Shown piece after piece: positions 7,565-47,508 of a stretch of 47,508 nucleotides of DNA. The stretch is from Candidatus Microgenomatus sp. (GTDB lineage Bacteria > Patescibacteriota > Microgenomatia > UBA8517): positions 625,027-672,534 of the forward strand of contig DYGS01000001.1 in NCBI GenBank assembly GCA_020724585.1, in the 5' to 3' direction. Position 1 is the stretch's first letter. Each line of letters opens with the position of its first letter. A program made the translations under genes and the position numbers. Below the pieces are notes generated by a model. It worked only from the letters and a program-made list of their open reading frames with translations. It made no database searches and had not been told where the DNA came from.

Positions 7565-10500
7565 ATGGCTATATCTTTAGTAGGCTCAACTTCCCTAACA
7601 GCCACCTCAACAGCCACAAATCCGTCATTAACTTTTTCTCTAAACGGTACTGAGGATATGGTTGTTGCCTTCGGAACGGGCCTAAATGCACCTACTGATA
7701 TAACTTTCAATGGATCGACGATGGCGCTGGCTATTTCTCAAAACAATGGCATAAATACCGGTGGGGTTGCCCTATTTTATCTTTTGCCTCCAAATATTCC
7801 CGGATCTGGAGACTATACGGTCCAAGGTACATGGGCATCGTCTGATCAAAATGCAATGCTTGGTGTTGTTGGATATGCAGGCACAAAAGGGCAGGCCCCA
7901 GTTGACTCAAACTCAACATTTATTACTGGAAATACAAATACCACAACTTTTACCCTTCCCCTGACAACTTCAACAGCAAATTCATGGGTTATCGGGCTTG
8001 CTTATGCCAATGGTACCGCAAGTACATTGCTTAATATAACACTTGGAAACATCAGAGAAAATAGAGAAGCCACTACATCTGAGACAATGTTCTCAGATAG
8101 AGAAATTTCAGCCGCTGAATCAACTGGAGTCGTTTGGACATTTAGTTCTCAAACTGCTGCTTTAACTTTTGCGGGTATGGTAATTGAACCTGCGATATCA
8201 TCTGTTTCCCCTTCAGTATCAGCAAGTCCATCTCTTAGCCCATCTGTCTCAGTTTCACCAAGTGTATCTATTTCCCCTTCTGTTAGTGCTTCACCATCAG
8301 TATCACCATCAGTATCCGAGAGCCCAAGTGTTTCCCCAAGTATATCAGCTAGCCCATCTATTTCTCCAAGCGAACCGCCGCCAAACACACCCATAAATAG
8401 AAGTACGAACAGCGGTGTACAGGGAACAAATGCAACATCTCACACTGTTAATTTACCTGCAACGGTAACTTCAGGTGATCTACTTTTAGTTTGGATGTCG
8501 TTTGATGGTACTCCTGTTGTTACTTGGGATAACACAACTCATGGCACATGGACTCAATTTGTTGACACCAATAACGGATCCAATACTTTAACAATTTACG
8601 GAAAAGTAGCAACAGGATCGGAAGCAGGTGGAACTTTAACAATTACGACAGATGCTAGTGAGCAAAGTGTCCATAGATCAGCTTCAATTTATCAATGGCA
8701 AGGATCAATTGCGGGTGGAGTAAATTATCCTGCGGCAACATCTGGAACTGACACAAATCCTGACTCACCTATTGCAACCGACTCGTGGGGAACCACTGGG
8801 AGGAGAACTATCTCAATTGTCTCAATCGATGGAACAGCAACCGTTTCATCTTATCCTGCAGGTTATTCGCAGAATCAATTCTTTGACCAGTCTGGTGGCG
8901 GAGCAGGATGTGGACTTGGAAGTGCTGCTTATAATGATATCGTTGGTTCACAAAACCCATCAAGCTATACAATAGACATAAGTTCTGCTTGGATTGGAGC
9001 AACCATTTCAATTAAAGGTGGCGGTGGGTCATCGACATCACCATCTGTATCTGTTTCTCCTAGTGCATCTGCTAGTCCATCGGTGTCACCGAGTGTTTCT
9101 GTTTCACCATCTGTATCAGAGTCACCCAGCGTTTCACCATCAGTTTCTGTTAGTCCTTCTGTATCTGAATCGCCTTCAGTTTCCCCTTCAGTTTCGGCAA
9201 GCCCATCTGTGAGTCCTAGTGCATCGGTTTCGCCGTCAGTATCAGTTAGTCCATCTGTATCAGTCTCCCCATCAGTAAGCATATCACCATCTGTTAGCCC
9301 ATCGGTTTCTGCAAGTCCATCTGTATCACCATCAGTTTCTGTCTCCCCGTCAGCTTCAGTAAGCCCATCGGTGTCTGTATCCCCATCAGTTTCCGTAAGT
9401 CCTTCCGTTTCGGAATCTCCATCTATTAGCCCGTCAGTATCAGCATCACCTTCCGTTTCTCCCTCAGTTTCCATATCCCCAAGTGCTTCGGTTAGTCCAT
9501 CAGTATCAGTTTCACCTTCAGTAAGTGCCTCTCCTTCTGTTAGTCCCTCTGTTTCCGCAAGCCCCAGTGTCTCACCATCAGTTTCGGTGTCACCATCTGT
9601 GTCAGTTTCCCCATCAGTCTCAGAGTCGCCATCAGTTTCCCCCTCGGTTTCCGAAAGTCCATCTGTATCACCATCAGTTTCTGTTTCGCCAAGTGCATCG
9701 GTTTCGCCGTCAGTATCAGTTAGTCCATCAGTGTCAGTTTCTCCTTCTGTAAGTGCCTCTCCTTCTGTTAGTCCCTCTGTTTCTGAAAGTCCATCTGTTA
9801 GCCCATCGGTGTCAGTCTCACCATCTGTTTCTGTTAGTCCTTCTGTTTCGGAATCTCCATCTGTAAGTCCATCGGTTTCTGCAAGTCCTTCAGTGTCACC
9901 ATCTGTTTCAGTATCACCATCTGCGTCAATTTCACCATCTATATCTGTATCACCTTCGGTTTCAGTTAGTCCAAGCGTCTCGGTATCACCAAGTGTATCT
10001 GAATCACCGTCTGTTAGTCCTTCTATTAGTTTAAGTCCATCAATCAGCCCATCAATTTCTGTATCTCCAAGTGCTTCGGTTAGTCCATCAGTTTCTGCAA
10101 GTCCTTCAGTGTCACCATCAGTTAGTGCTTCACCATCAGTCAGTCCATCGGTGTCTGTAAGTCCAAGCGTATCCATAAGTCCATCGGTGTCGGTCTCCCC
10201 GTCAGCTTCAGTAAGCCCATCGGTGTCAGTCTCACCATCTGTTTCTGTTAGTCCTTCTGTTTCGGAATCTCCATCTGTAAGTCCATCGGTTTCTGCAAGT
10301 CCTAGCGTTTCACCATCTGTTTCAGTATCACCATCTGTGTCAGTTTCCCCATCAGTCTCAGAGTCGCCATCAGTTTCCCCTTCTGTTTCCGCAAGTCCAT
10401 CTATTAGTCCATCTGTATCAGTATCCCCTAGCGCATCTATTTCGCCATCGGTGTCCGTTAGTCCTAGTGTTTCTATTTCACCATCAGTTTCTGCAAGTCC

Positions 10501-12205
10501 TAGTATTAGTCCTAGTGTTTCCGCAAGTCCATCTCTTTCACCATCTGTTAGTATTTCACCTTCGGTGTCAGTCAGTCCATCTGTTTCCGCAAGTCCATCA
10601 CTAAGTCCATCGATATCAGCCAGCCCATCATTATCACCATCCGTCTCCATTTCACCAAGTGTATCCGTCTCTCCATCAGTATCAGAATCGCCATCAATAT
10701 CACCAAGTGCCAGTCAATCACCATCTGTTTCACCAAGTGTATCTATATCTCCATCTGTATCTATTTCACCATCAGTTTCTATCAGCCCTTCAGTTTCAGA
10801 ATCTCCATCTATTTCCCCTTCAGTTTCAGCAAGCCCATCTGTATCGCCTTCTGTTTCCGTCAGTCCATCGGTGTCTGTAAGTCCAAGCGTTTCGCCATCT
10901 GTTTCAGTATCCCCATCCGTCAGCCCGTCGGTATCGGTTTCTCCAAGTGCATCTGTCTCCCCATCCGTATCTATTTCACCATCTGTTAGCCCGTCAGTAT
11001 CAGCATCGCCTTCCGTTTCTCCCTCAGTTTCCATATCTCCAAGTGCTTCAGTTAGTCCATCAGTATCAGTTTCACCTTCAATAAGTGCCTCTCCTTCTGT
11101 TAGCCCTTCGGTTTCTGCAAGTCCATCTGTTAGCCCGTCCGTGTCAGTTTCACCATCCGTATCAGAATCACCATCTGTTTCTCCAAGTGTGTCAGTCAGT
11201 CCATCTGTATCTCCTTCTGTTTCAATATCACCAAGCGTAAGTATCAGCCCTTCGGTTAGTCCAAGTGTTAGTGTCAGTCCTTCTGTTTCACCAAGTGTTT
11301 CAATAAGTCCCAGTGCTTCTGTTTCCCCATCAATATCCCCTTCTATATCAACTAGTCCTAGTTTAAGCCCTTCTGTATCAATCTCTCCCTCATCCTCCGT
11401 TTCACCAAGCGAAGTTATCTCACCAAGCGTAAGCGTCTCACCATCAGTTTCGCCTTCGGTTTCAATCTCTCCATCAACTTCACCAAGTGTTTCAATTTCA
11501 CCATCTGTCTCACCATCTGTTTCAATCTCTCCTTCTGCATCCATATCTCCATCGGTTTCCGTAAGCCCGTCTGTGTCGATTAGCCCATCAGTCTCCCCAT
11601 CAGTCTCTGTCTCACCATCTGTTTCAATCTCTCCTTCTGCGTCTATTTCGCCTTCCCAGTCTGTATCCCCCAGTGTTTCAGAAAGTCCTTCTGTTTCACC
11701 GTCAGTTTCTGTTTCCCCTTCTGCTTCTACATCCCCATCTCCGTCACCATCTGAATCGCCATCACAATCACCTTCCATTAGTCCTTCTCAATCGGAATCA
11801 TCATCAGCTTCTCCATCCATTCCGGGTATATCAAGCTCGCCGTCTGCATCAATCTCACCATCTTCTAGCCCCTCAGGTTCTATTTCCCCATCTGTTTCAC
11901 CATCGGGAATAATATATTCGGCAAGTGCCAGCGTTAGTGCATCTAAATCACCATCCATAAGTCCTTCATTATCACCGTCAACTCCGCCGATTCCTATTCT
12001 AATCAGAGAATCAGCTATATTTAACAGGGAATCAACAGCGGGTCAAGGATCAACAGTATCGGGACTGCAAAATATTCCTGCCTGGAATACAGTCGGTAGG
12101 CCAAAAACTGCAAGAGTCGGGACCATCGGATTTAATATTCAAACAAGATCGCTTGAATTTTTTAGTGGTAAAAAGTGGTTCAGATTGCCGATGAGTAGAA
12201 TTTAA
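7565..12205 (+). CDS. giant Ser-Pro-Val hexapeptide-repeat protein (1546 aa), probable surface fibre / glycosylation scaffold
   Basis: Single uninterrupted ORF: globular module (aa 1-211), SPSVSx tract (212-269), second globular module (270-488), 984-aa SPSVSx tract (489-1472), 74-aa C-terminal module. No signal peptide or TM helix seen. Confidence 0.8.
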   Translation: MAISLVGSTSLTATSTATNPSLTFSLNGTEDMVVAFGTGLNAPTDITFNGSTMALAISQNNGINTGGVALFYLLPPNIPGSGDYTVQGTWASSDQNAMLGVVGYAGTKGQAPVDSNSTFITGNTNTTTFTLPLTTSTANSWVIGLAYANGTASTLLNITLGNIRENREATTSETMFSDREISAAESTGVVWTFSSQTAALTFAGMVIEPAISSVSPSVSASPSLSPSVSVSPSVSISPSVSASPSVSPSVSESPSVSPSISASPSISPSEPPPNTPINRSTNSGVQGTNATSHTVNLPATVTSGDLLLVWMSFDGTPVVTWDNTTHGTWTQFVDTNNGSNTLTIYGKVATGSEAGGTLTITTDASEQSVHRSASIYQWQGSIAGGVNYPAATSGTDTNPDSPIATDSWGTTGRRTISIVSIDGTATVSSYPAGYSQNQFFDQSGGGAGCGLGSAAYNDIVGSQNPSSYTIDISSAWIGATISIKGGGGSSTSPSVSVSPSASASPSVSPSVSVSPSVSESPSVSPSVSVSPSVSESPSVSPSVSASPSVSPSASVSPSVSVSPSVSVSPSVSISPSVSPSVSASPSVSPSVSVSPSASVSPSVSVSPSVSVSPSVSESPSISPSVSASPSVSPSVSISPSASVSPSVSVSPSVSASPSVSPSVSASPSVSPSVSVSPSVSVSPSVSESPSVSPSVSESPSVSPSVSVSPSASVSPSVSVSPSVSVSPSVSASPSVSPSVSESPSVSPSVSVSPSVSVSPSVSESPSVSPSVSASPSVSPSVSVSPSASISPSISVSPSVSVSPSVSVSPSVSESPSVSPSISLSPSISPSISVSPSASVSPSVSASPSVSPSVSASPSVSPSVSVSPSVSISPSVSVSPSASVSPSVSVSPSVSVSPSVSESPSVSPSVSASPSVSPSVSVSPSVSVSPSVSESPSVSPSVSASPSISPSVSVSPSASISPSVSVSPSVSISPSVSASPSISPSVSASPSLSPSVSISPSVSVSPSVSASPSLSPSISASPSLSPSVSISPSVSVSPSVSESPSISPSASQSPSVSPSVSISPSVSISPSVSISPSVSESPSISPSVSASPSVSPSVSVSPSVSVSPSVSPSVSVSPSVSPSVSVSPSASVSPSVSISPSVSPSVSASPSVSPSVSISPSASVSPSVSVSPSISASPSVSPSVSASPSVSPSVSVSPSVSESPSVSPSVSVSPSVSPSVSISPSVSISPSVSPSVSVSPSVSPSVSISPSASVSPSISPSISTSPSLSPSVSISPSSSVSPSEVISPSVSVSPSVSPSVSISPSTSPSVSISPSVSPSVSISPSASISPSVSVSPSVSISPSVSPSVSVSPSVSISPSASISPSQSVSPSVSESPSVSPSVSVSPSASTSPSPSPSESPSQSPSISPSQSESSSASPSIPGISSSPSASISPSSSPSGSISPSVSPSGIIYSASASVSASKSPSISPSLSPSTPPIPILIRESAIFNRESTAGQGSTVSGLQNIPAWNTVGRPKTARVGTIGFNIQTRSLEFFSGKKWFRLPMSRI
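8198..8371 (+). repeat. short (SPSVSx)n coding tract, 18-nt period
   Basis: Translates as SSVSPSVSASPSLSPSVSVSPSVSISPSVSASPSVSPSVSESPSVSPSISASPSISPS. Confidence 0.9.
9029..11980 (+). repeat. long (SPSVSx)n coding tract, ~2.95 kb, 18-nt period; x mostly V/A/E/I/P
   Basis: Read directly from the translation. The reverse strand yields (TDGETD)n-type shadow ORFs. Confidence 0.9.
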
Positions 12206-21240: not shown

Positions 21241-21982
21241 TTCTTTAGATTTACAAAAATTATCAACAAATTTAGGCATTGATGTCTATACAATACTTAG
21301 AGAATATGTTCAAATAACATTTTTAAATAGTTTATATTTCTATCCTAAAGCTAAAAACCTAGTTTTTAAAGGAGGAACAGCCTTAAGATTTTTTGCCAAC
21401 TCCCCTAGATTTTCAGAAGATTTAGACTTTACTTCTAGTTTAAGCCACAATGATATTGTTACCATAACAGATGAGGCAATAAAGGATTTAAAATCTGAAT
21501 TTAATGATATTGAGATTAAAAATATGAAATCAATATCAGGCCTGAGCCGAAAGATATATATAGATAATGATATTTCATCACAAAAACTAACAATCAAGCT
21601 TGATTTTTCAGAAAGAGAGAAAGTGATAAATTCAAAAATTGGGATAATCAGAACAAATTTGCCTATCATATCAACTACTCCAGTCACATTTCTTGATCTA
21701 AACGAGATCTTGGCAGAAAAAATAAGAGCAATAACTACTAGAAATAAAGGGCGTGACCTTTTTGACTTATGGTTTTTACTTCAAAACAACCATAAACTTG
21801 ATCTAAAACTAATTCAGACTAAATTAGATTATTATAATGAAAAATTTGATAGAGATAATCTTATTAAAACAATAAAAGACTGGGATGAAAAACAACTATC
21901 CAACGATCTTAATAAATTTCTACCAATTAAAGATAGAAAGATAATTCCAGAATTAAAAAGTCTATTGTTGAGTTTAATTTAA
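21233..21982 (+). CDS. abiEii: AbiEii-type nucleotidyltransferase toxin (pair 4)
   Basis: LVFKGGTALRFFANSPRFSEDLDFT and RDLFDLWFLL. 8-nt overlap with its antitoxin. Confidence 0.85.
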   Translation: MINSLDLQKLSTNLGIDVYTILREYVQITFLNSLYFYPKAKNLVFKGGTALRFFANSPRFSEDLDFTSSLSHNDIVTITDEAIKDLKSEFNDIEIKNMKSISGLSRKIYIDNDISSQKLTIKLDFSEREKVINSKIGIIRTNLPIISTTPVTFLDLNEILAEKIRAITTRNKGRDLFDLWFLLQNNHKLDLKLIQTKLDYYNEKFDRDNLIKTIKDWDEKQLSNDLNKFLPIKDRKIIPELKSLLLSLI

Positions 21983-22899
21983 CTCTCCACTACACCAAAA
22001 CTTGTATTATATTTTTTGCGCAGGAGTTTTGATGTAAAAACAACCCAAGGGAACTTTGGAAAGGCATTAAATATCCTTCTTGCCCTACTCCAGAAGTTAA
22101 ATGGCTCTGAAAATAGCCTGTAGACCCACTCAAGTCCATTCTTAGCCATCCACTTCGGGGGCAGACTGGCATTACCGCTTATAAAATTAAAAGTCCCCCC
22201 GACAGCCATCGCACCAGTTGCTCTTAACCTAAAAAAGTTTCTAAATATCCATTTTTCTTGCTTGCCTGGAAGAAGCGCAACAAAAACCAAATCAGGCTCA
22301 AATAACCTAATATCTCCAATTATTTTTTTATGAAGTTTCAAATCATCTTCTGAAACCGGCTGGCAATTTTTGTCATAGATTGGAAATTTATTGTTTGTTT
22401 TAAACTTGACTCTTTTATATTTTTCGCTTAAAACAGCCATTGCAGATTCAGCCTCGCCGTGCTCGCCGCCGTAAAGATAAACCTTCAATTTCTTTTCATC
22501 GGCAATTTTAATTATGTCTAAAAATATTTCTCTACCTTTAATTATTTGCAATCTATTTAATAGATACTCAGGATCTGTAAATGTTGATAAACCTACTTTT
22601 AAACCCTGATAAAAAAGTATAAAGGGTCTAAATATGCCTTTTGGATCGTCCAAATCCATATATTTGTAGGCTTGAGCCAAACCTATTCCATCTGGAAGAG
22701 ATAGATCAGATTTATATATAGCTTTTTTAAGTAGCCAATCTTTCATGGCCATTAAAACAATCTCGGGATTAGGAGTTACTATGTAAAATTTTTCTCTAGA
22801 AGAAAGTCTTTCGCGCACAAAATTTAGCACTTGTTCTCTTGAAGTGCTACTAATCTTGATTCCTAGCAAAGATCCGTGTTTTGGGCCACTTTTCGCCAT
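21979..22899 (-). CDS. WecB/TagA/CpsF-family (GT26) glycosyltransferase
   Basis: 306 aa. IVTPNPEIV, YLYGG, and C-terminal PKWMAKNGLEWVYRLFSEP are typical of the family. Confidence 0.8.
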   Translation of the reverse strand: MAKSGPKHGSLLGIKISSTSREQVLNFVRERLSSREKFYIVTPNPEIVLMAMKDWLLKKAIYKSDLSLPDGIGLAQAYKYMDLDDPKGIFRPFILFYQGLKVGLSTFTDPEYLLNRLQIIKGREIFLDIIKIADEKKLKVYLYGGEHGEAESAMAVLSEKYKRVKFKTNNKFPIYDKNCQPVSEDDLKLHKKIIGDIRLFEPDLVFVALLPGKQEKWIFRNFFRLRATGAMAVGGTFNFISGNASLPPKWMAKNGLEWVYRLFSEPFNFWSRARRIFNAFPKFPWVVFTSKLLRKKYNTSFGVVES

Positions 22900-23004
22900 A
22901 ATTTATACAATTTTTACCGACTTTTCTTGTTTTAAAATCATTTTTTGGTTATTTTTTCCGTCTTTTTTTAAAAAAAATTGTTTTTATTTTCTCCGCAATC
23001 ATAG

Positions 23005-23064
23005 TTTATAATTTATAATTTATAATTTAAAATTCCCTATATACTATATACTACATACTATATA
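23005..23064. repeat. heptanucleotide tandem repeats: (TTTATAA)3 then (CTATATA)4
   Basis: 23005..23025 is TTTATAA x3 (plus a variant to 23032). 23037..23064 is CTATATA CTATATA CTACATA CTATATA, followed by CTTATA CTTATG. Confidence 0.85.
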
Positions 23065-23211
23065 CTTATACTTATGTTTTTCGCTACTTTTGTACAATTT
23101 TTTACTTCAAAAACTAGCCTTATTTTAAGCTACTTACCCACAACATATTAACAATTATTTGTAAATAATCAGAACTTACTATCGGACTATATATTTTCAC
23201 TTTTGTCCTCC

Positions 23212-23246
23212 CTATATACTATATACGATATACTATATACTAATTT
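23212..23246. repeat. second (CTATATA)n heptanucleotide block
   Basis: CTATATA CTATATA CGATATA CTATATA CTAATTT. Shares CCCTATATACTATATAC with 23035..23051. Confidence 0.85.
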
Positions 23247-23256
23247 ATTTTCCGCA

Positions 23257-24264
23257 TCACCCTTTAGTAGTAACACTTCTTTTCCAGAGTTCTATATTTT
23301 CCAAGACAAGTCCTGTCCCTCTAACAACACAGTACAGCGGCTCATCGGCCAAATGAGCGGGAACTCCAGTTTCCTCTGTTATCAGTCTATTTAAATTGCG
23401 CAATGAAGATGTTCCTCCGCTCATAACTATGCCTTTGTCAATAATATCAGCCGCAAGCTCAGGCGGTGTATCTTCCAAGACAGCTTTAATCGCCCCTATA
23501 ATTTGTAAAAGAACGGGTTTTATAGCTTCGGTAACTTCTGTTGATGAGATTGTAACCGTTCTTGGCAAACCAAAGACCAAATCCCGCCCGCTTATTTCCA
23601 GTTTTTCTTCTTTGGAAAGAGGCGTGGCTGATCCAATTTTTATCTTTATATCCTCGGCAGTTGTGTCCCCAACTATCAAATTGTGTTTCTTTTTTAAATA
23701 ATTTTGTATTGCTTCATCAATTTTATTACCTGCAACTCTTGCTGATCGATGAACAACCACTCCGCCAAGAGATAAAACAGCCGCTTCGGTTGATCCTCCG
23801 CCGCTATCGACTATCATATGCCCCGAAGGGGCGGAAACAGGAATTCCGGCTCCAATTGCCGCAGCCAGAGGTTCGTCAATTAAATAGGCATGAGCAGCGC
23901 CAGCCGAGAGAGTCGCATCCAAGGCCGCCCTTCTTTCAACTTGGGTACAGCCCGCAGGAACACAAACCATAACATTGGGCTTAAAAATTTTGCTGCCCCC
24001 AGCTTTTCCAATAAAATACCTAAGCATTGCCTCCGTTGCATGATAATCGGCAATTACGCCATCTTTCATCGGCCTATTAGCAACCAAACTTTCAGGTGTT
24101 CTGCCAAGCATTTTCTTGGCCTCTTCCCCCACTGCCACAATTTTATTGTCATCAACGGTTGTAGCTACGACCGTAGGTTCATTAACAATAAGTCCTTTCC
24201 CGGCAATCCAAACCAAGGTATTTGCAGTCCCCAAATCTATTGCAATATTTATCCTGTTAAACAT
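23257..24264 (-). CDS. mreB: rod-shape-determining actin homolog MreB
   Basis: 335 aa. IAIDLGTANTLV, MKDGVIAD, DEPLAAAIGAG, VDSGGGSTE and IVMSGGTSSLRNL are classic MreB motifs. Confidence 0.95.
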   Translation of the reverse strand: MFNRINIAIDLGTANTLVWIAGKGLIVNEPTVVATTVDDNKIVAVGEEAKKMLGRTPESLVANRPMKDGVIADYHATEAMLRYFIGKAGGSKIFKPNVMVCVPAGCTQVERRAALDATLSAGAAHAYLIDEPLAAAIGAGIPVSAPSGHMIVDSGGGSTEAAVLSLGGVVVHRSARVAGNKIDEAIQNYLKKKHNLIVGDTTAEDIKIKIGSATPLSKEEKLEISGRDLVFGLPRTVTISSTEVTEAIKPVLLQIIGAIKAVLEDTPPELAADIIDKGIVMSGGTSSLRNLNRLITEETGVPAHLADEPLYCVVRGTGLVLENIELWKRSVTTKG

Positions 24265-29916: not shown

Positions 29917-32214
29917 TTACATCCTTTCAGGGGCTTCTATTCCAAGAAGTTTGAGGCCGGATTTTAATACTATTCCCGTCTTTTGAGTCAACATAAGTCT
30001 AAAAGACCCATCACTCGTATCTTCCAACCCTACTATCCTGTGTTTAGCATAAAAAGTGTTAAATTTACTGGCTAAATCATATAAATAATTGCAAATTAAA
30101 TTGGGAGAGAAATTTTCAGCCGCGTTTTTTACAACCTCGCTAAAGATAAACAGCTTGCGAAGTATAGCAATCTCTTCCTCCTTTAAAGCTAGACCTTGAA
30201 AGCTTATATCTTGCAGGCTGAGACCTTTCAAGTTGGCCTTATTAACAACACTGTTTATTCTGGCAATCGTATATTGGATATAAACTGATGAATTACCATC
30301 CATTGCAAACATCTTGTCCCAATCAAAGTTAATATTTGTAGATGGATGGTGAGAAAGATCAAAGTATTTTATAGCCCCGATCCCGACCTGCCTCGCCGTA
30401 GACTTATCACTCTTATCTTCGTTTCCCAGTTTCCTTGCCCTTTCAATCGCCTCATTTAATACTTCTTCAAGTTTTACTGTTTTTCCCGCCCTTGTTGACA
30501 TTTTTTTACCATCCATCAAAAATAGTCCATGTCCCACATGCACCCTTTGTCCGTCTTTATACCAACCCAGCATTTTTTCAATTTCAAAAATTTGTTTGAA
30601 ATAGAGACTCTGTTCACTTCCAACTTCATTAATAATTAAATCCGGATTATATTTTTCCTTTCTATACTTATCTGTTGCCAAGTCCCTTGTTGAATAAAGC
30701 GTTGTTCCATCTTTTTTAAGTATCATTAGAGGGCTTAAGTTAGTATCTTTATCAAAAAAGACTAGTTTTGCCCCATCCTCCCCTACTTTTAAAAGTTTTC
30801 TTTCTTCAAGCTCTTTAATAACAATCGCCATTTTGCTTTCAAAAAATGATTCGCCCAACCCCCTACCACTATTAAAATCTCTATCAAATTTGATATTTAA
30901 AAGTTTGTAAATTTTGTCAAACTCCCTGAAACTTATCTCTACACACTTTTCCCATACCCACTTTGCTTCGTCATCGCCATCCTCCAACTTTTTAAACCAA
31001 TCCCTAGCTTTTTGTTTCATATTAAGATTTTCTTGAGCTTTTTTATGAAACTCGACATATAGTATTAGCAGATCCTCAACAGACCAATTTGGCATTTGTA
31101 ATTTGTAATTTGGAATTTCGGTGATTTGCGAGAGCAAAGCACCAAACTGTGTTCCCCAATCTCCTAAATGATTATCTCGCATTACTTTATAACCAACTGC
31201 TTCCATTAAGTTTGCGATACTATCCCCTATTACCGTTGATCTTAAATGCCCCACACCAAAAGGCTTGGCTATATTAGGACTGCTATATTCAACTATGGCA
31301 AGTTTGCCTTTATTTTTATTTGATTTACCATAGTTTTCATCTATAGTAATTAAATTATCACTTAAGACCTCATCTTTTAATTTAAAATTTACAAATCCCT
31401 CAACAGCATTAGCCTTAACAAGTAATTTTTCATTAAAATTATTAAATTTTTCAGCAATTTCTTTAGCAAGCTCAACTGGATTTCTTTTTATTTCATAATT
31501 GAGGCTGAAGTCTTGACTTTTTGCCTCCAATTTGTTATAAAATAGTTGGCTTTCTTGTAGACCGGAGAATGACGCGCCGGCGGCCCGCAAGGGTGATTGT
31601 AGGGAAGGGATGCGGTACTTCCCAAGAAGACCATTTTTTAGTCTTTTCGGATTTACAAAAAACATAGTAACTATCTCATTTCCGTCTTTTCCTTCTAAAA
31701 TCTCTATTACAATTACTCCAAAGTTTCCATTATTAAAAGCAAATAAATTTCTTTTGTCATTATTTTTATCTTCATAAACATCAATTGGATAAAAAGTAAT
31801 ATACGGAATTTGCCATAAAACATTTGGTAAAACTTCATTATGGCCTACTCTATGCCCCAACCAACCACATATCTTCGCATAGACAAAACCATTCAAATAA
31901 ACCATATCGGATTTGGCGTTAATTATTTTGACAATCTCAGAATTTAATCTTCCTACAGGTAAACTAAATTTATTATCCTTCCAAGACTTCTTGTTTATAT
32001 TTTTACTAATCCATTCAATATTTTCCAAAAAATTCCCTTTTTCGTTTGCCATTTGCAATGCAACATTACTTGAATAGTCTCCAAAGGCCTCGTTTGATGC
32101 AAACTCTACTTGAGGATTTTTAACACCAGCTACACTCTCTAAAACTTTTGCTATTTGCTGTTTAATATCTTGCACTATACAAATGATTATATCTAGCGCA
32201 AAACAAAATGTCAC
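29917..32214 (-). CDS. argS: arginine--tRNA ligase with ~183-aa insertion in the N-terminal domain
   Basis: SSPNIAKPFGVGHLRSTVIGD (HIGH region), MSTRAGK (KMSKS-like), and a C-terminal anticodon-binding domain ending in M. The likely true start is the GTG at 32175 (MQDIKQQI...), since a TATAAT-like box lies in the listed 5' extension. Confidence 0.9.
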   Translation of the reverse strand: MTFCFALDIIICIVQDIKQQIAKVLESVAGVKNPQVEFASNEAFGDYSSNVALQMANEKGNFLENIEWISKNINKKSWKDNKFSLPVGRLNSEIVKIINAKSDMVYLNGFVYAKICGWLGHRVGHNEVLPNVLWQIPYITFYPIDVYEDKNNDKRNLFAFNNGNFGVIVIEILEGKDGNEIVTMFFVNPKRLKNGLLGKYRIPSLQSPLRAAGASFSGLQESQLFYNKLEAKSQDFSLNYEIKRNPVELAKEIAEKFNNFNEKLLVKANAVEGFVNFKLKDEVLSDNLITIDENYGKSNKNKGKLAIVEYSSPNIAKPFGVGHLRSTVIGDSIANLMEAVGYKVMRDNHLGDWGTQFGALLSQITEIPNYKLQMPNWSVEDLLILYVEFHKKAQENLNMKQKARDWFKKLEDGDDEAKWVWEKCVEISFREFDKIYKLLNIKFDRDFNSGRGLGESFFESKMAIVIKELEERKLLKVGEDGAKLVFFDKDTNLSPLMILKKDGTTLYSTRDLATDKYRKEKYNPDLIINEVGSEQSLYFKQIFEIEKMLGWYKDGQRVHVGHGLFLMDGKKMSTRAGKTVKLEEVLNEAIERARKLGNEDKSDKSTARQVGIGAIKYFDLSHHPSTNINFDWDKMFAMDGNSSVYIQYTIARINSVVNKANLKGLSLQDISFQGLALKEEEIAILRKLFIFSEVVKNAAENFSPNLICNYLYDLASKFNTFYAKHRIVGLEDTSDGSFRLMLTQKTGIVLKSGLKLLGIEAPERM
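31561..31625. repeat. GC-rich patch in frame inside argS (possible third member of the leuS insert family)
   Basis: ACCGGAGAATGACGCGCCGGCGGCCCGCAAGGGTGATTGTAGGGAAGGGATGCGGTACTTCCC encodes (minus strand) YRIPSLQSPLRAAGASFSG. Internal hairpin GGGAAG (31602..31607) / CTTCCC (31618..31623). Confidence 0.45.
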
Positions 32215-32970: not shown

Positions 32971-33786
32971 AACTTTGTAAACAACATCTCCCATTTGGTC
33001 TGTCCTTAAAATTTTTACCTTTTTAGCATTTAGCATTTGTATAATTTCTTTATGTGGGTGGCCGTAGCGATTATTTTTCCCGGCACTTATTACAGCAATT
33101 TCAGGCATCAGTTTATTTAGTAGTTTTTCTGATAATCCATTCTTAGAACCATGATGAGGTATTTTGATATAGTTAACCTGTCCTATTTTTTTATTTTCGG
33201 ACAAATCATCGCTCACTCCTGTTTCGATATCTCCTGTAAAAATAGCCTTAAAATTCTGATATTTTAGATTGATAACTATCGAATAGTTGTTTGTTTTATT
33301 TGAACTGTAATCTTTATTTGGATGAACTATATCTAAATATATCATCCCCACCCTAATATTGGGCAGATCATAAGGGTATATGATCACTGCCCCACTACCC
33401 CCTACCACGTTTTCTAGCACTCTAGTATAATCACTGCTAAAGACTTCCTTTTTAAAATCGTTGGTCAAAATATTTTTAACATTATAACTTTTAAAAACAT
33501 CCGCAAGTCCCCCGCTGTGATCTTTATCAGTATGTGTCAAAATAAAAAGTTCCAAATCCCTATCCCAAAACGGCATATATTTTCCAAGGCAATCCAAGAC
33601 CTGTCTGTCCGGTCCGCTGTCAATTAAAATTTGTGTAGTATTTTTAGAAAGTAAAATTACATCCCCTTGCCCCACATCGCAAGCAATTATTGACAAGTTA
33701 TTACTTACACTAAAAACAGCTAGCCAAATCGAAATAGCTACAAGTGTTAAAAAAATAAAAAGTGAGGACCTGCTATTTAAATTCAT
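32959..33786 (-). CDS. comEC: ComEC C-terminal metallo-beta-lactamase-fold domain as a separate ORF with its own N-terminal anchor
   Basis: 275 aa. CDVGQGDVILL, LTHTDKDHSGG, IPHHGS, and NRYGHPH. ATGA overlap with the upstream competence-domain ORF. Confidence 0.85.
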   Translation of the reverse strand: MNLNSRSSLFIFLTLVAISIWLAVFSVSNNLSIIACDVGQGDVILLSKNTTQILIDSGPDRQVLDCLGKYMPFWDRDLELFILTHTDKDHSGGLADVFKSYNVKNILTNDFKKEVFSSDYTRVLENVVGGSGAVIIYPYDLPNIRVGMIYLDIVHPNKDYSSNKTNNYSIVINLKYQNFKAIFTGDIETGVSDDLSENKKIGQVNYIKIPHHGSKNGLSEKLLNKLMPEIAVISAGKNNRYGHPHKEIIQMLNAKKVKILRTDQMGDVVYKVKTD

Positions 33787-34855
33787 CTTAAAATAGTAAC
33801 TATTTTTGTAAAATAAAATAACATTGGAAATATTACAAACAATATCAATCTACCTACTAATGGTACAATTATTCCTGCAATTCCTGCAATCATCCCTAAA
33901 CTCATAATATAGGGAACTGTCCAAAGTACTAAAGCATTTGTAATTGGAGATAAAATATTAAACTGACCAAAAGTAGCATAAATGATTGGTGCTACTCCAA
34001 CTTGGGCCGCTAAAGAGGTTGTCAGACCCTCTCTAAATAGACTTGGAATTCTACTTAAATAACTATCAATTTTCTTTTGGAAAAGCATTAATGAAGTAGT
34101 GGCGGTAAAAGATAATATAAAGCCTAAATCGGTTATCCAAACTGGTTTAACAAGAAGCATTATTATAGTAGTATACAGTAAGATACTCCAAGATATAGTC
34201 ACCCTGCCAGTTAATTGACCAAACATTACTATTATTCCCATTATTGCAGCCCTAACAATAGGCGCATCAAATCCCGAAAGAATAACATAAACGATTATTC
34301 CCGCAATACTCATGAAAACCGCATACCTGCGTTTAAAATATTGTGTTAGAATGCCAATTAGAAAAGAAGCTAACATGGTCACATTTGTGCCTGATGCTAC
34401 AACTACATGTGCAGTACCGGTATCGCGAAGCAGCTTCCAAAAACTTTCAGGCATTTGTTTTGATCCAATCGTAATTCCTGCAACAAGCGATGAATATGGT
34501 TCAGGAAGCGATGATTTGTAAAAAGATATTATTCTTTCTCTAATTTTAAATAAGAAGTTTTTATTTTCTGTATCTAATAATTTGTAATTTAGAATTTGTA
34601 ATTTAGAATTTGTAATTTAGAATTGGAAATTACTCCTGTAATTTCTACCCTATCTCCATAACTTATTTCAGGATATCTCGGCAAGTAAATTTTGAGTCCG
34701 TAAATTTTGAAATATTGTTTATCTCCAAAAACTATTGGCTCTGTTAATACTTGAGTCGTAATTCTTATCGTGTCCCCGTCCCTAAAACTTGGAAGTGATA
34801 AGTAATAGCGAATAGTTATTAGAAGAATTATTAATAACAAAAATACATACCTCAT
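33783..34855 (-). pseudogene. comEC: ComEC N-terminal (OB/DUF4131-like) plus competence channel domain, interrupted by a frameshift inside a 14-nt tandem repeat
   Basis: ORF 34589..34855 stops inside the repeat. The frame of ORF 33783..34454 (TGTAHVVVASGTNV, multi-TM) is open up to 34616. Removing one 14-nt unit fuses them into a 352-aa ORF (hand check). Confidence 0.75.
34579..34620. repeat. perfect 3-copy tandem repeat of 14-nt unit AATTTGTAATTTAG (two heptamers)
   Basis: Read directly: 34579..34592, 34593..34606 and 34607..34620 are identical. A degenerate fourth unit AATTGGAAATT follows. Confidence 0.95.
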
Positions 34856-34860
34856 GATTC

Positions 34861-35496
34861 TTAATACGAAATATTACTTTTTATTTTGTCATAAGTTTTT
34901 TGGGGAATAATTTTTTTAGAAACCAATTCTTCTAAAGATGAGTAAGGTCTTTGTTCAATGATCTTTTGGGCGTAAACAGGGCCAATTCCGTTTAGTGATT
35001 CTAGTTCTTTTTGACTTGCAGTATTAATATTTACCAAACCACTACCACTCACTCCTAAAATCGCTTGATCTATTTTGTTATACTCACTTTTTTTAGCAGT
35101 CTCAACTTCTGACTGCGAAGGAATATATAATTTTTGTCCATCTGCAAGTTTTGCTGCTCTATTTATATTTTTACCCACCCATTCCCTATCAGCACTGGCA
35201 TTTATTCCTCCAGCAGAAATTAAAAGATCGTCAATTCTATCCCCTACTTTTAACTTATAAACTCCCGGTTTTTCAACAGCTCCTGCAATTTCAACTGTGA
35301 TATTCTCATCTTTTAATTCTTCATTTTTATTTATTATTTCTATTTGATTCTGACTTTCAAACAAACCGCTTTTGAATAAAAACACACCAAATCCTATTAA
35401 AATCAAGCCCAAAAGAAGAAAGATCAGAAGTTTTTGATTAGACGACGAAGTTAACAAGTCTGCCAGGAATAAATACCTCTTTTTTGATTCTTCCAC
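34861..35496 (-). CDS. comEA: ComEA-type DNA receptor (SLBB plus helix-hairpin-helix)
   Basis: N-terminal TM helix. VNINTASQKELESLNGIGPVYAQKIIEQRPYSSLEEL HhH motif. The listed GTG start overlaps leuS by 59 nt, so the start is uncertain. Confidence 0.85.
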   Translation of the reverse strand: MEESKKRYLFLADLLTSSSNQKLLIFLLLGLILIGFGVFLFKSGLFESQNQIEIINKNEELKDENITVEIAGAVEKPGVYKLKVGDRIDDLLISAGGINASADREWVGKNINRAAKLADGQKLYIPSQSEVETAKKSEYNKIDQAILGVSGSGLVNINTASQKELESLNGIGPVYAQKIIEQRPYSSLEELVSKKIIPQKTYDKIKSNISY

Positions 35497-37849
35497 TTAC
35501 TAACCATTTTGCTACTTTTTCGTCTTGTTTTGCAAGTTGTATTATTTTATTTTTATTTTTCGATTCTTCATTTTTAACTATTAATTGGCTTCTTAGTTTT
35601 CCATTTATCTGTACTACTATTTCTACCTGCTCTGCATGTAAATACTTTTCATCATATGTTGGCCAGGTTGATGTGTGAACTGAACCTTTTTGTTTTAAAA
35701 TTTCTCTCCAAACTTCCTCTGAAAGGTGTGGTGTAAAGGGGGCCAGTAGTTGTGCCAGCACAACTAAGTACTTTGTACTTAGTACTTCGTATTTAGCAAG
35801 CTCGTTAACAAATTCCATTATCTTAGCTATGGCTGTGTTATATTTAAACAATTTGATATCCTCAGTCACACCTTTTATTGTTTTATTTAAAATAAAACGA
35901 AGATCGGCGGAAGCCGAACGACTGGTCTGCGAAGCAACCCGAAGGAGTGAGGACCCGCTGATCGAGTTTTGGGTAAACAATTTATATACTCTTTTCAAAA
36001 ATCTACTCATTCCCTCAATTCCACTATCTCTAAAATCTGGATAGCCATCCATTTGACCTAAAAACATGACATATAACCTCAGTGTATCTGCTCCATATTT
36101 TTCAATGTAGATATCAGGGTTAACTACATTACCCCTACTTTTACTCATTTTGGCACCATCTTTAATCATCAAACCATGAGCAAAGAACTTTGGAAATGGC
36201 TCTTCATGGTCAATTAATCCTAAATCATACATAACCATGTTTACAAATCTGGCATACATTAAATGTAAAACTGCATGTTCAGCCCCACCAAAATATAAAT
36301 CGACGGGTAACCAGTTTTTATTAATATCGTTATCCCATGGCAGGCGAGAGATACCAGCAGCCTCGCGACTGGCTGACGCATTCTTCGAACGCGGCCCTCC
36401 AAGGAGCGTGGAACTGGTATCCGAGCCGACACTCGGATAACGTAAAAAGTACCAACTACTGTCGACGAATGTGTCCATAACATCAGTTTCTCTTCTTGCT
36501 TCTCCATTACAATTAGGGCACTTAACTTTCCAAAATTCTTCATGATTAGCTAGTGGTCCTCTACCATTTCCTTCTGGCTTAAAATCTTTAATATCAGGCA
36601 AGGTTACTGGTAAATCTTTTTCAGGAACACTAACCCAACCGCATTTATCACAATCGATCATTGGAATTGGAGCTCCCCAATATCTCTGGCGACTAACAAG
36701 CCAATCACGCAAATGATAATTTGTGTGTTTAACACCCCACTTTTTCTTTGGAATTTCATCCCAAAGCTTGTCATTTAGACTATTACTTAATATATCTAAA
36801 GAATACTTTTTAGCAAACTCCATATCATGTTCATCATATGCAGGTACTCCCATTACAAAACCAGTTCCATAATTTTTCTCTACATAATTTGTTTCCCAAA
36901 TTGGAAGTTCTCTACCATCAACAGGAGATATTGCATATTTACCTGTAAACTTACCCAGCTTCTCTTTTGATTTTTCTGGTTTCTCCAATTCATCAGAAAA
37001 TGTTGCAATGAATGTTACTGACTCTAAAGTATCAGGCCTTGTTGTAAAAACTGTAATTATTTCATCTGAATCTTTAATTTTAAAGTCAATTTTCATTCCC
37101 TCAGACTTTCCAATCCACTCTCTTTGTGCCGTTACTACTCTTTGACTCCAGTTAATAGTATCAAGTCCATTAAGTAGTCTGTCTGCATAGTCTGTGATTT
37201 TGAAAAACCATTGGTCTAAATTTTTCCTTTCTACAACCGTTCCGCACCGTTCGCAAACTCTTAAATCTTCATTATTAACTATTAATTCCCCATTCGCAGA
37301 ACGGGGTTCTTTACCTGCTTGTTTTGGTGTCATTACTTGCTCATCTGCAAGAACTGTTTTACAACTAGGGCAAAAGTTAACTTCTGCAGTCTTTCGGTAG
37401 GCCAAACCTTTCTCCCACATTTTTAAAAATAGCCACTGTGTCCATTTGTAATAATCTTCACTTGAGGTTGTAACTGTTCTTGTCCAATCATATCCATGAC
37501 CTAGACTTCTCATTTGTTCCTCGTAGTGTTTTGTTGTTCTTTTAACTACTTCTTTTGGATTTTCATTTATTTTGATTGCATAGTTTTCAGAATGTATTCC
37601 GAATGAATCATAGCCAATTGGCTGAAATACAGTTTTACCATTCATCCTCATAAATCTTCCAATAACATCACTTCCAGTTGAAGCAAATGCATGGCCGGCA
37701 TGTAGACCTTCAGCGCTGGGGTATGGAAACATCCACAAGTTGTAGAATTTATCTTTTTTCTTTAAATTTTTGATATCAGGAGAATACAATTTCTCCTTTT
37801 CCCACACCTTTTGCCATTTTGCCTCTATTTTTTTGTGATTATATTCCAT
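35438..37849 (-). CDS. leuS: leucine--tRNA ligase
   Basis: 803 aa. PYPSAEGLHAGH (HIGH), CP1 editing domain with Zn-type CxxC pairs, DTFVDSSWYFLRY, KMSKSRGN. Confidence 0.95.
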   Translation of the reverse strand: MEYNHKKIEAKWQKVWEKEKLYSPDIKNLKKKDKFYNLWMFPYPSAEGLHAGHAFASTGSDVIGRFMRMNGKTVFQPIGYDSFGIHSENYAIKINENPKEVVKRTTKHYEEQMRSLGHGYDWTRTVTTSSEDYYKWTQWLFLKMWEKGLAYRKTAEVNFCPSCKTVLADEQVMTPKQAGKEPRSANGELIVNNEDLRVCERCGTVVERKNLDQWFFKITDYADRLLNGLDTINWSQRVVTAQREWIGKSEGMKIDFKIKDSDEIITVFTTRPDTLESVTFIATFSDELEKPEKSKEKLGKFTGKYAISPVDGRELPIWETNYVEKNYGTGFVMGVPAYDEHDMEFAKKYSLDILSNSLNDKLWDEIPKKKWGVKHTNYHLRDWLVSRQRYWGAPIPMIDCDKCGWVSVPEKDLPVTLPDIKDFKPEGNGRGPLANHEEFWKVKCPNCNGEARRETDVMDTFVDSSWYFLRYPSVGSDTSSTLLGGPRSKNASASREAAGISRLPWDNDINKNWLPVDLYFGGAEHAVLHLMYARFVNMVMYDLGLIDHEEPFPKFFAHGLMIKDGAKMSKSRGNVVNPDIYIEKYGADTLRLYVMFLGQMDGYPDFRDSGIEGMSRFLKRVYKLFTQNSISGSSLLRVASQTSRSASADLRFILNKTIKGVTEDIKLFKYNTAIAKIMEFVNELAKYEVLSTKYLVVLAQLLAPFTPHLSEEVWREILKQKGSVHTSTWPTYDEKYLHAEQVEIVVQINGKLRSQLIVKNEESKNKNKIIQLAKQDEKVAKWLVSGRIKKEVFIPGRLVNFVV
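35902..35963. repeat. GC-rich palindromic in-frame insert B in leuS
   Basis: Terminal inverted repeat GATCGGCGG (35902..35910) / CCGCTGATC (35955..35963, one G-T pair). Encodes SGSSLLRVASQTSRSASADL. Shares CGACTGG and CCxAAGGAGxG blocks with insert A. Confidence 0.6.
36350..36440. repeat. GC-rich palindromic in-frame insert A in leuS
   Basis: GATACCAG (36350..36357) / CTGGTATC (36414..36421), plus the adjacent hairpin TATCCGAG (36418..36425) / CTCGGATA (36432..36439). Encodes SDTSSTLLGGPRSKNASASREAAGIS between the conserved WYFLRY and NWLPVD blocks. Confidence 0.6.
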
Positions 37850-43769: not shown

Positions 43770-44185
43770 AAATTAAATATAGCGATATTTTTGAGCCAAA
43801 ACAACACTCATTTTGCATTAGCAATAGCAAAAAAATTCTGCTAAATTTAATCCTATATTTTATACCCCAAGTTCATAAAAATTACCAATTTTTTAATAAA
43901 AAAATAGCTTTTTTCTAATTCTTTCGTAAGACGAAAATCTTGATTAACGCAAAAATTGAGGTTTTTAATACGGCTAAAATATTTACCGCAAATAACCGCA
44001 AACATGCAGAATTTTTAAAATACGCACGCGCATTTTAACCCTATAATAACATTTTTTCATTCTATACTCACCTATCATTATACTGTTTGATATATTTAGG
44101 TAATTAGAAATCTATGCGGAAAATATATTATATCTTATGTGAAATTCGTAATTCTTAATTTTCAATTTTTAATTGTTTTAGGCTC

Positions 44186-44213
44186 TTGACAGCCTTGCTA
44201 ATAGTATTAATAT
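44186..44213 (+). promoter_or_regulatory. candidate promoter of the open-ended giant ORF
   Basis: TTGACA (44186..44191), 16 nt, TAATAT (44208..44213). TATAAT boxes also occur at 44227 and 44235. Confidence 0.4.
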
Positions 44214-44259
44214 TAGTATAGCCTTGTATAATGCGTATAATTTGAGGCTAATCAGAAAT

Positions 44260-47200
44260 ATGCGGAAATTAATTAATAATTACCTAAATCACCTAATTAA
44301 GCAGGGAGTCTCAAAAAACTCTCTAAAATTCTACAAATCTGACATCTCTCAGTTTTTGAATTGGACAAGAAATAGGAAAATTACTAAAAGATTGGTCTTG
44401 GAATATATATCTTCCATTAGATTTGTAACTCCTGTTTCAACCATCAATAGAAAATTATCAACCTTAAGAAGCTTTGCTAATTTTTTAAACCAAAACTTTA
44501 TGGACGGCGTTGCCAATGTCTCAGAGACAAGAAAAATATTTAAAAATTGGCAGGATAAAATTCTCTACAAATTTGAACACCGACCTAAAATTAAACACCT
44601 ATTAAGCAGAGTTTTTTACAGCAGGCCAAACTGGTATAGAAAGTATCATTCCTATTCACTTTCAACCTATATTCACATTGCCATTTTGGTTTTATTCACG
44701 GCTACGGCAGGTTACGCGCTTTATGATCAAGCATTTAAAGAACCGGGCGGCCTTTTTGCTTTCCCACCAAATTTGACAAGACCAAACAGGTATTTATCAT
44801 TTCAAGGAAGATTAACAGATAACTTAGGTAACCCAAAGACAACAGCGACTAATTTTGTATTCAAGCTGTATGATGCATCATCTGGTGGAAGCACTTTATG
44901 GAACTCTGGAACTTGTTCCATAACGCCTGATCAGGATGGTATTTTTTCAACTCTACTTGGATCATCATGTGGATCAGAAATTGCATCATCTGTATTTAGC
45001 GAAAATGCAAGTGTCTGGTTGGGTGTTACCGTTGGGGCGGATGCTGAAGCAACACCCAGAATACAGATTGCAACCGTTGCCTACGCCTTAAATGCAGAAA
45101 CCCTACAAGGGTTTCCTGCAGGAACAGGGACATCAACTATCCCTTATATAAATTCCGCTGGGACTGTCGTTTTGGCCAATGCTTCTCCAAAAATTCAATC
45201 AACCTCGGGCACTTTTGCAGTTGAAGGACAAGCATTAACAATAACAACTCCAAATACAACAAACGGTGTCATAACTATCAATCCTGATGGCACGGGAACA
45301 CTTGATCTAACTTTTGAAGGAACATCTCCCGGACTTTCTGCAAACGGTTTTGTCAATGCAACTAATGCCAACATCACAAGCGGATCGCTTTATGCTGGGA
45401 CAGTTGCAAGTAATGCGACTGGTTACAATTTCATTAATTTTCTTTCCGGCGCATCCCCCACTTCTAAATTTTCTGTTGAAAATGATGGCGATATAAATAC
45501 ATCTGGAGACCTAACTTTATCTGGTGGGAATTTGAATACAGGCAATATTGCCTTAACTATTGGTGATGCAACAACTGACTCAATAACTTTACAGACAGAC
45601 GGTACAGGAAATGGCGAGGTGGTACTTCCAAATGATTCAATCAGTCCAAATGAAATATTTACAACAGGACAAACTGATGAGTATTGTCTCACATATGAAG
45701 CAACTGGAGCCACATGGGAATGGCAAACTTGCGGCGCAGGGGGCTCATCTATTTGGAGTGATTTAACTGCACCAATTGCTGATTTAACACTTTCAATGGC
45801 CGCATATAACACAACTTTTAACTGGGACCCGGGAACTGCTGCTGAAACTAACTTTTCTTTAACTACCCAAGGAGAAGACACAGGTGCAGTTGACCAAGTT
45901 TTAATGGCGCTTTCTCAAACTTCAAATGGAGTGGACACCACACAAGCCGCTGACGCACTACTTACTTTTACCAATAATGATCCAAACGACCCTGTTATAA
46001 ATGCCATCAGATTTGATGCAGGAGCAGCAGGAACAGACTTTACATATGGAATTAACTTTAGCGGTTCTTCGTTTGGAACATCAGAACTTCTTCTTTCAAA
46101 CTCAGCAACAATACAAAATATAGTTAACGGTACACTTGCACTAACAGAACCAACCATACAACTAATAGGTTCTACATCAGTTGATTTTGATACTCCCCTT
46201 TTAGACCTTGGAACACAAACAGTTGCTGTTACACTAAACAACTCAGCCAATGCCCTAAATTTTGACTCCAATACCCTCTCAATTGACGCTCTAAATGATC
46301 GTATTGGCATAGGAACAACTGGACCTGATGCAAAACTTGATTCTTTGGCAACTAGTGGTGAACAATTAAGACTTACATATACTGATGGCTCCGTGTATTC
46401 AGGTTTTACAACAGATTCAAATGGTTATTTGATAATTGATCCAACAGGAGCAAGAATTTCACTTGATGGAGCACTTCAAGTCGGTTCGACTTCTCCACTT
46501 GCTTATTCAAGATTTGGGACTGCAACAACTGGGCATAGCGGCAATATCAGTGCTTCAAATGATCTCTTGATATCAGGGGATCTGGAGCTTGATGGTACAT
46601 TTTTCTTGGATGGCGGGACAATTGCAAACTCTGCGGGAACCGCAACTGTTGTCTTTTCATCCGATCCCATAACAACAGCAAACACACTGTCTGCAAGTAA
46701 TTGGTTGGTCGAAAATACTGCCAATGTCGGCCAAGCTGCATTAATGGTCAACAACACAAAATCAGGTCCGCTTTTTACAGCCTCTGCCTCAGGAACAACC
46801 AAATTTACAATTCACAATGACGGGGCGATAACTTTAGCAACCATCGACTCAACTACAAATACGCTTGAGGGAACTATTTATTATGACTCAAATTCTATTG
46901 GCTCCTCATCAACCGACCATTTGTTTATGAGGGGCAGCGATAACGCTTGGCATAGAATTGCTCTTGATATGACCAAATATAGTGCAACTAATGCGACGGT
47001 TGCCAACCAAAACTACCTTCAAGTCACTCACAACCAAGGAACCAACGACCTAGCAATTACCGCCTGGATCAAAGACAAAATCACCAATCTTTGGAGAAAG
47101 ATTTCTGATTTCTCTCATACAATTAAGCATGCCTTACAAAATGAGTTTAATGATGCATCTGCAAAACAATTTAGCATTAATACCAATAACACCCTTCAAA

Positions 47201-47508
47201 ACAATCTTGTAGCCTATTGGTCAATGGATGAGACAAGCAGTGGCACTTCAGCTGTTACTAGAAATGATAGTTATGGGAGCAACAATTTAACGGATAATAA
47301 CACAACCACATCGGGAACAGGAAAGATAAATAACGCCGCTGATTTTGAATCAAGCAATTCTGAATTTCTAGAGATTGCTGACAATCTACCTCTCTCCACT
47401 GGCGACATAGATTTTACTATTACAGCCTGGATTAATCTAGAAAGCGAAACTGCAGGTACTAATAGAATGACAATTGTGAGTAAACACGAAAGCGCATCTG
47501 TGCGCGAA
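44260..47508 (+). CDS. giant surface protein, 5' part (over 1083 codons, continues past the window): N-terminal integrase-SAM-like domain, TM helix, long Thr/Gly/Asn-rich ectodomain, LamG-like module
   Basis: Not in the ORF track (no stop in the window). I translated every line from the ATG at 44260 to 47508 in frame 1 and found no stop. In-frame stops lie upstream at 44170 and 44179. Listed minus-strand ORFs 45195..46802 are shadows of it. Confidence 0.8.
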   Translation, partial: MRKLINNYLNHLIKQGVSKNSLKFYKSDISQFLNWTRNRKITKRLVLEYISSIRFVTPVSTINRKLSTLRSFANFLNQNFMDGVANVSETRKIFKNWQDKILYKFEHRPKIKHLLSRVFYSRPNWYRKYHSYSLSTYIHIAILVLFTATAGYALYDQAFKEPGGLFAFPPNLTRPNRYLSFQGRLTDNLGNPKTTATNFVFKLYDASSGGSTLWNSGTCSITPDQDGIFSTLLGSSCGSEIASSVFSENASVWLGVTVGADAEATPRIQIATVAYALNAETLQGFPAGTGTSTIPYINSAGTVVLANASPKIQSTSGTFAVEGQALTITTPNTTNGVITINPDGTGTLDLTFEGTSPGLSANGFVNATNANITSGSLYAGTVASNATGYNFINFLSGASPTSKFSVENDGDINTSGDLTLSGGNLNTGNIALTIGDATTDSITLQTDGTGNGEVVLPNDSISPNEIFTTGQTDEYCLTYEATGATWEWQTCGAGGSSIWSDLTAPIADLTLSMAAYNTTFNWDPGTAAETNFSLTTQGEDTGAVDQVLMALSQTSNGVDTTQAADALLTFTNNDPNDPVINAIRFDAGAAGTDFTYGINFSGSSFGTSELLLSNSATIQNIVNGTLALTEPTIQLIGSTSVDFDTPLLDLGTQTVAVTLNNSANALNFDSNTLSIDALNDRIGIGTTGPDAKLDSLATSGEQLRLTYTDGSVYSGFTTDSNGYLIIDPTGARISLDGALQVGSTSPLAYSRFGTATTGHSGNISASNDLLISGDLELDGTFFLDGGTIANSAGTATVVFSSDPITTANTLSASNWLVENTANVGQAALMVNNTKSGPLFTASASGTTKFTIHNDGAITLATIDSTTNTLEGTIYYDSNSIGSSSTDHLFMRGSDNAWHRIALDMTKYSATNATVANQNYLQVTHNQGTNDLAITAWIKDKITNLWRKISDFSHTIKHALQNEFNDASAKQFSINTNNTLQNNLVAYWSMDETSSGTSAVTRNDSYGSNNLTDNNTTTSGTGKINNAADFESSNSEFLEIADNLPLSTGDIDFTITAWINLESETAGTNRMTIVSKHESASVRE

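Follow-up and report, generated by a model that had tools for sequence, protein, structure and literature searches.

A third 14-nt repeat unit frameshifts comEC in an uncultured Woesebacteria-type bacterium

The simple sequence repeat contingency loci of Haemophilus, Neisseria, and Campylobacter consist of many units of 1–7 nt, the number of which varies between strains. In these loci the gene returns to the ON state every three units, and the repeats are conserved. In lacI of E. coli, a tract of three CTGG units, described by Farabaugh et al. in 1978, reportedly frameshifts the gene when slippage adds a unit and restores it when a unit is lost; it is said to be a hotspot and not an evolved regulator. 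In M. tuberculosis, low-copy tandem repeats can change at rates between 1e-2 and 1e-3 per chromosome (PMC12817950). For comEC, the point of reference is the only genetically tractable Patescibacterium, a member of the Saccharibacteria, in which growth does not depend on the gene and only transformation requires it (PMC10633639). A comEC deletion strain of Southlakia epibionticum was viable and not transformable, and the com genes made no contribution to fitness in a Tn-seq experiment on this organism (PMC10633639).

We analyzed a 47.5-kb window (the whole stretch of 47,508 nt presented above) for which a preliminary description had suggested that the copy number of a 14-nt repeat switches comEC on and off. 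The comEC gene of the window is a frameshifted allele of a ComEC/Rec2 family member.

Repeat array and reading frames of comEC

Within the minus-strand gene comEC, TRF detected a period-14 array of 3.3 copies with 100% matches and a score of 92; exact 14-nt units start at 34579, 34593, and 34607 (Table 1). The perfect 14-nt repeat named in the preliminary description was thus recovered. Between the flanks GGAGTAATTTCCAATT and ATTAGATACAGAAAAT, a spacer of 14, 28, 42, or 56 nt corresponds to one, two, three, or four units. At lag 14, the array contained 32 consecutive self-matches, whereas the longest run in any of 200 Markov-1 simulations of the window was 14; it is therefore a duplication and not a product of chance. 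As in a contingency locus, the repeat is perfect, lies in an ORF, and has a unit that is not divisible by three. Barring a short intergenic heptamer run, it was the sole perfect array in the window with at least three copies and a period that is not a multiple of three.

The N-terminal comEC piece ends, and the frame of the downstream piece opens, inside the repeat, as had been described. A TAA (34591..34589) within unit 3 terminates the 88-aa ORF, and the 223-aa ORF lies in a frame that opens at 34616, directly after a TAA in unit 1. The internal Met from which the second piece would start is residue 130 of the reconstructed protein, a minor correction to the preliminary description; with three copies, residues 89–129 are left untranslated. 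An inserted 14-nt unit shifts the frame, its length not being divisible by three, and with one unit removed the 88-aa and 223-aa pieces became a single ORF of 352 aa. Both this length and the junction peptide of the rebuilt ORF agree precisely with those given before. The junction peptide of the ON (or recoded) product is ILNYKLLDTENK, whereas the OFF product ends in ILNYKF.

Table 1. Features of the comEC region, in window coordinates
Feature	Position	Strand	Details
ComEC MBL-domain ORF, 275 aa	32959..33786	(-)	own N-terminal TM helix; intact
comEC Competence-domain piece, 223 aa from internal Met130	33783..34454	(-)	PF03772, E=2e-42
41 codons, residues 89–129 of the reconstruction	34455..34577	(-)	intact, untranslated at 3 copies; two helices
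Perfect tandem repeat	34579..34624	(-)	coding-strand unit CTAAATTACAAATT; 3 full units + 4 nt
comEC N-terminal piece, 88 aa	34589..34855	(-)	TM helix 2–20 + six-strand OB-like barrel
comEA (SLBB + HHH_3)	34861..35496	(-)	intact, directly upstream of comEC
LeuRS	35438..37849	(-)	

We computed the product lengths for arrays of zero to seven units, obtaining 79, 88, 352, 88, 88, 88, 88, and 88 aa, respectively. Arrays of zero and one units are out of frame. All arrays of at least three units stop in unit 3, because the unit CTAAATTACAAATT has a TAA in one of its three frames. The ON state consequently does not recur every third unit: two units alone gave the full ORF in this series, and the earlier expectation of an ON state at two or five copies has to be narrowed to two.

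Repeats of other kinds were observed elsewhere in the window. The intergenic stretch 23001..23242, between the minus-strand genes 21979..22899 and 23257..24264, held heptamer arrays (ATAATTT x4.9, CTATATA x5.3, and CTATATA x4.4) that may be promoter-region repeats. A 1546-aa ORF without a Pfam match (7565..12205) contained dense coding repeats of 18, 30, 36, and 96 nt in its 8–12 kb part, where the GC content was 0.45–0.46 versus ~0.33. Two long antisense ORFs in this region (8965..10650 and 10714..11778) are probably by-products of its composition. At the right end of the window, a plus-strand open frame of more than 1109 codons (~44180..47508) ran past the window boundary, and the minus-strand ORFs inside it (45423..45881 and 45915..46310) are likely spurious.

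The two-unit form and its relatives

The two-unit form is a colinear, full-length ComEC and represents the real gene. The reconstruction matched PF03772 with an E-value of 3.8e-43 (cut-off 23 bits) and TIGR00360 with 78.7 bits (cut-off 36.5 bits). TIGR00361 aligned to its residues 80–335, that is, into the untranslated stretch upstream of the first ATG, and the same stretch was reached by PDB chain 9vc9_A, which covered residues 96–251. The family profile matched solved ComEC/Rec2 chains, with matches starting at positions 96–106 (E-value of 1.5e-19 for 30bt_A). Among the best 120 of 1335 homologues, 117 were 345–366 aa long; the remaining three were two proteins of ~330 aa and the window's own 223-aa piece, which was also the sole match with full identity in this set. 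ComEC homologues from Woesebacteria measured 350–357 aa. In an alignment of 22 sequences, the reconstruction passed the junction without a gap, so the colinearity that the preliminary description had made a point of comparison was borne out. The junction peptides of the closest relatives were SKLQITNFKLL, SKLQVLNFKQ, and SKLRITDYKLL.

An AlphaFold (AF2) model of the reconstruction (pLDDT 78, pTM 0.72) consisted of a TM helix (residues 2–20), a barrel (29–89), and a helical channel domain. Read with two copies, the array corresponds to the final beta-strand (S79–L88) of the OB-like barrel at the N-terminus. The 88-aa piece had no Pfam match, and the six-strand barrel is a feature of the AF2 model (pLDDT 78). 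A Foldseek search against the PDB yielded no significant match, the weak top matches being OB folds. Residues 89–129 contain 11 family-invariant positions (R101, Y108, K109, E114, P115, S118, L119, G122, G126, S127, and K128), and this stretch matches the core region of ComEC structures that have been solved. In the window, no single frame runs through the OB and Competence domains, since the three-copy repeat stops translation at residue 88. The frameshift is the single lesion, and the reconstruction keeps all family-invariant residues, including the 11 in the untranslated stretch; unlike a decayed pseudogene, the gene shows neither several disabling lesions nor a loss of conserved residues.

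The gene order around comEC was compared with that in relatives. The MBL ORF matched PF00753 with 28.6 bits (cut-off 22.7 bits), aligned to positions 425–663 of TIGR00361, and overlapped the Competence ORF by 4 nt (ATGA). All of the loci L074–L078 had LeuRS or ComEA, followed by a ComEC of 350–353 aa and then a separate MBL ORF. The ComEC and MBL ORFs of relatives were 17–22 nt apart or overlapped by 34 nt. Judging from this gene order, a separate MBL ORF is normal for this Woesebacteria clade, and ComEC is naturally a two-gene system there.

A single tblastn match ran uninterrupted across the junction in 60 of 66 species-level relatives (GTDB genomes), and a frameshift at the junction was found in none of the 66. 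The other six were L063, whose ComEC has no in-frame OB domain, and five whose N-terminal regions were too divergent for an alignment. The 28-nt tract of the five closest relatives was a degenerate heptamer array (~ACAAATT x4) whose 14-nt halves were identical at 8–12 of 14 positions, compared to 14 of 14 in the window strain only; none of the five kept it as a perfect repeat. The comparison of this junction between related genomes, suggested earlier, thus returned reading through in most and a degenerate tract in the closest.

Two relatives initially appeared to be interrupted at the junction. The first, L007 (CAZONS010000095.1, a MAG named "uncultured Thiobacillus sp."), carried 751 bp of comEC (33806..34556 of the window) at its positions 2516–3266 with 100% identity, between flanks of ~70% GC. 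This sequence of a public MAG is almost certainly a chimera produced by co-assembly, joining comEC to Thiobacillus-like DNA, and it was discarded as a 98%-identical relative; the left breakpoint of the chimera lies 23 nt from the repeat. The second, L063 (JALHYA010000010.1, ~2410–2520; 54% identity), was not frameshifted: the whole OB-like barrel is missing in frame, and the TM helix is joined directly to ...KEKISSFYKKTLPEP....

A motif of the NCAAATT family, to which the comEC repeat also belongs, was observed in the ArgRS gene of the window (31086..31120, minus strand), where CGAAATT CCAAATT ACAAATT ACAAATG CCAAATT encodes EIPNYKLQMPN in frame inside an essential gene. Such in-frame runs mark the motif as a general tendency of the genome, which is rich in AT. 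The ArgRS itself (29917..32214, 765 aa) has ~225 residues without a Pfam match between its N-terminal domain (16–63) and its catalytic domain (290–632), which looks like a large lineage-specific insertion.

Copy numbers on record and explanations of the third unit

The third unit is real. JGI contig 3300029893 (644 kb) has three units, as in the window. In the Logan assemblies of SRR5011273 and SRR5011275, the repeat interrupts the sequence: the left contig ends in ...CCAATTCTAAATTACAAATTCTAAATTACAAA, and the right contigs begin with TTCTAAATTACAAATTCTAAATTACAAATTATTAG. A literature search on the sample accessions returned nothing. A de Bruijn simulation with k = 31 reproduced these ends exactly for at least three units; with two units, it gave one unbroken unitig. 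It is most improbable that the third unit is an assembly or sequencing artefact and that the true genome has two. Assemblers classically make errors at tandem repeats, and the Logan contigs do break at this one, but the 46-nt array is shorter than any Illumina read, two full assemblies, taken as independent, have three units, and the breaks in two separate runs fall at k-mers that exist only with at least three units. In the simulation, all 31-mers of the two-copy allele also occurred in the three-copy allele, and for that reason a mixture of two and three copies would leave no trace in the Logan graphs.

The copy numbers on record are three in two full assemblies and at least three as implied by two k = 31 assemblies, all of them from one clone and at the assembly level; no polymorphism in copy number was seen among them. 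All of the organism's loci, one from SRR28264341 among them, were 100% identical to the window, with 0 SNPs over 2.7–8.8 kb; since all assemblies represent one clone, the word "fixed" applies to one sampled population only. The exact two-, one-, and zero-copy products were absent from a collection of ~15 billion proteins, which had only the three-copy pieces on record. A search of JGI metagenome contigs for 28–58 nt between the exact flanks gave 0 matches in a collection that lacks this population and missed even the known JGI contig.

We consider it quite likely that the window carries a plain, potentially revertible loss-of-function comEC allele that arose by a recent slipped-strand duplication in one clonal population. 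In the proposed course of events, the tract would have become a perfect 2 x 14-nt repeat in the window strain, and a recent replication slippage (tandem duplication) would have added the third 14-nt unit. With the frame shifted, translation from the comEC start would end at the TAA in unit 3, after 88 residues, giving a product that would keep the TM helix and the OB-like barrel and lack the channel domain. The next 41 codons, with their invariant ComEC residues, would go untranslated. Slippage loss of one unit would restore the gene exactly, so that reversion should be possible in principle. From the conserved residues affected, we infer a loss of function, or at best a severely crippled comEC. 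A Patescibacterium can tolerate the loss of comEC, given that the gene is dispensable in Southlakia epibionticum. The preliminary description had assumed that DNA import by ComEC matters for a scavenging-dependent organism, a premise weakened by this dispensability for growth (PMC10633639). With comEA and the MBL ORF intact, the locus has only one disabling lesion. This absence of decay fits a very recent mutation, and equally a gene that is periodically ON; a minority two-copy subpopulation may lie behind these assemblies, which counts against the reading as a plain slippage allele. The array is best read as an indel hotspot and not as an evolved contingency locus.

A working reversible switch, in which two units are ON and three OFF by slipped-strand mispairing and subpopulations differ in competence, appears unlikely. 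Such a switch would be in keeping with a perfect repeat of a unit that is not a multiple of three, with a single slippage step restoring a conserved full-length protein, and with the lack of other decay in comEC. In M. tuberculosis, phase variation occurs at low-copy repeats of tens of bp (PMC12817950), an instability that makes reversion in comEC mechanistically plausible. The identical ancestral units of the window strain, compared to 8–12 of 14 positions in relatives, could be explained by a past cycle of expansion and contraction, but synonymous GC-to-AT drift explains them about equally well. Relative to L074 and L075, the changes are mostly synonymous GC-to-AT transitions plus F-to-Y, with Y also found in other homologues, and we did not accept the identity of the units as proof of such a cycle. 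Several observations speak against a switch. The array has three units only and a single ON copy number, the in-unit stop turning all arrays of at least three units OFF. No relative is frameshifted at the junction, and the five closest lack the perfect repeat. The ON product is absent from the protein collection (~15 billion), three copies are the consensus in both full assemblies, and both Logan runs contain alleles of at least three copies. Finally, this is the only such array in the window, barring the heptamer run mentioned above. The preliminary description was right that the repeat breaks the comEC frame; its phase switch found no support, given the one ON state, the intact relatives without a perfect repeat, the single clone whose assemblies either have three copies or break as expected for at least three, and the missing ON product.

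It is very unlikely that the gene still works at three copies, either because separate 88-aa and 223-aa pieces assemble after initiation at Met130 or because recoding (a -1 shift or a 14-nt hop) joins the frames. The ComEC of L063 naturally lacks the OB domain, which indicates that this domain can be dispensable. However, L063 keeps the 41-residue segment, which contains 11 family-invariant positions, aligns to the solved ComEC core, and is untranslated in the window, and the split organization was seen in none of the 66 species-level relatives. A protein starting at Met130 would lack an invariant part of the ComEC core. The missing Shine–Dalgarno motif before Met130 is no counter-argument and was set aside as uninformative, because just five of the 45 ORFs in the window have such a motif upstream; the organism appears to initiate translation largely without SD motifs. 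For recoding, the identical units would provide matched take-off and landing codons. An X XXY YYZ slippery heptamer was found nowhere in the N-terminal ORF, and searching for a stimulatory RNA structure around the repeat returned folding no better than that of shuffled sequences (z = -0.96).

Comparison with known systems

With the third unit read as a slippage-derived allele, the comEC of this genome is to be annotated as one frameshifted allele and not as two genes. A natural population would then carry a competence-null (or crippled) allele, which fits ComEC being non-essential for growth in Patescibacteria. If reads were to show heterogeneity between two and three copies, the locus would be a rare case in which an ultra-small, host-dependent bacterium controls its DNA uptake stochastically; a true switch would have no described precedent as a contingency locus in the CPR/Patescibacteria, and it would act on the DNA-import channel.

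The closest analogue of the comEC array is the CTGG tract of lacI. Both consist of a few perfect units inside an ORF, where the gain of a unit frameshifts the gene and its loss restores it exactly. The comEC unit differs in being 14 nt and not 4 nt long, and it belongs to an uncultured Woesebacteria-type bacterium in which the allele is known from sequence alone. With the contingency loci of Haemophilus, Neisseria, and Campylobacter, the array shares an intragenic repeat that sets the reading frame through a unit that is not a multiple of three. Unlike those loci, comEC has three units and a single ON length, and its relatives hold a degenerate tract that does not slip.

The arrays of M. tuberculosis show that low-copy arrays can switch, as two or three units of tens of bp vary there in isogenic populations (PMC12817950). 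They are promoter repeats that tune transcription, and their heterogeneity was shown with reads (PMC12817950), whereas the comEC array causes a frameshift in a coding sequence and is known from assemblies. ComEC/Rec2 of the Saccharibacteria belongs to the same protein family, and the competence genes comEA and comEC are conserved throughout the radiation (PMC10633639). In contrast to the Saccharibacteria gene, the Woesebacteria clade has a ~352-aa protein with the OB and Competence domains plus a TM-anchored MBL protein, and in the window strain, the first of these two ComEC genes is frameshifted.
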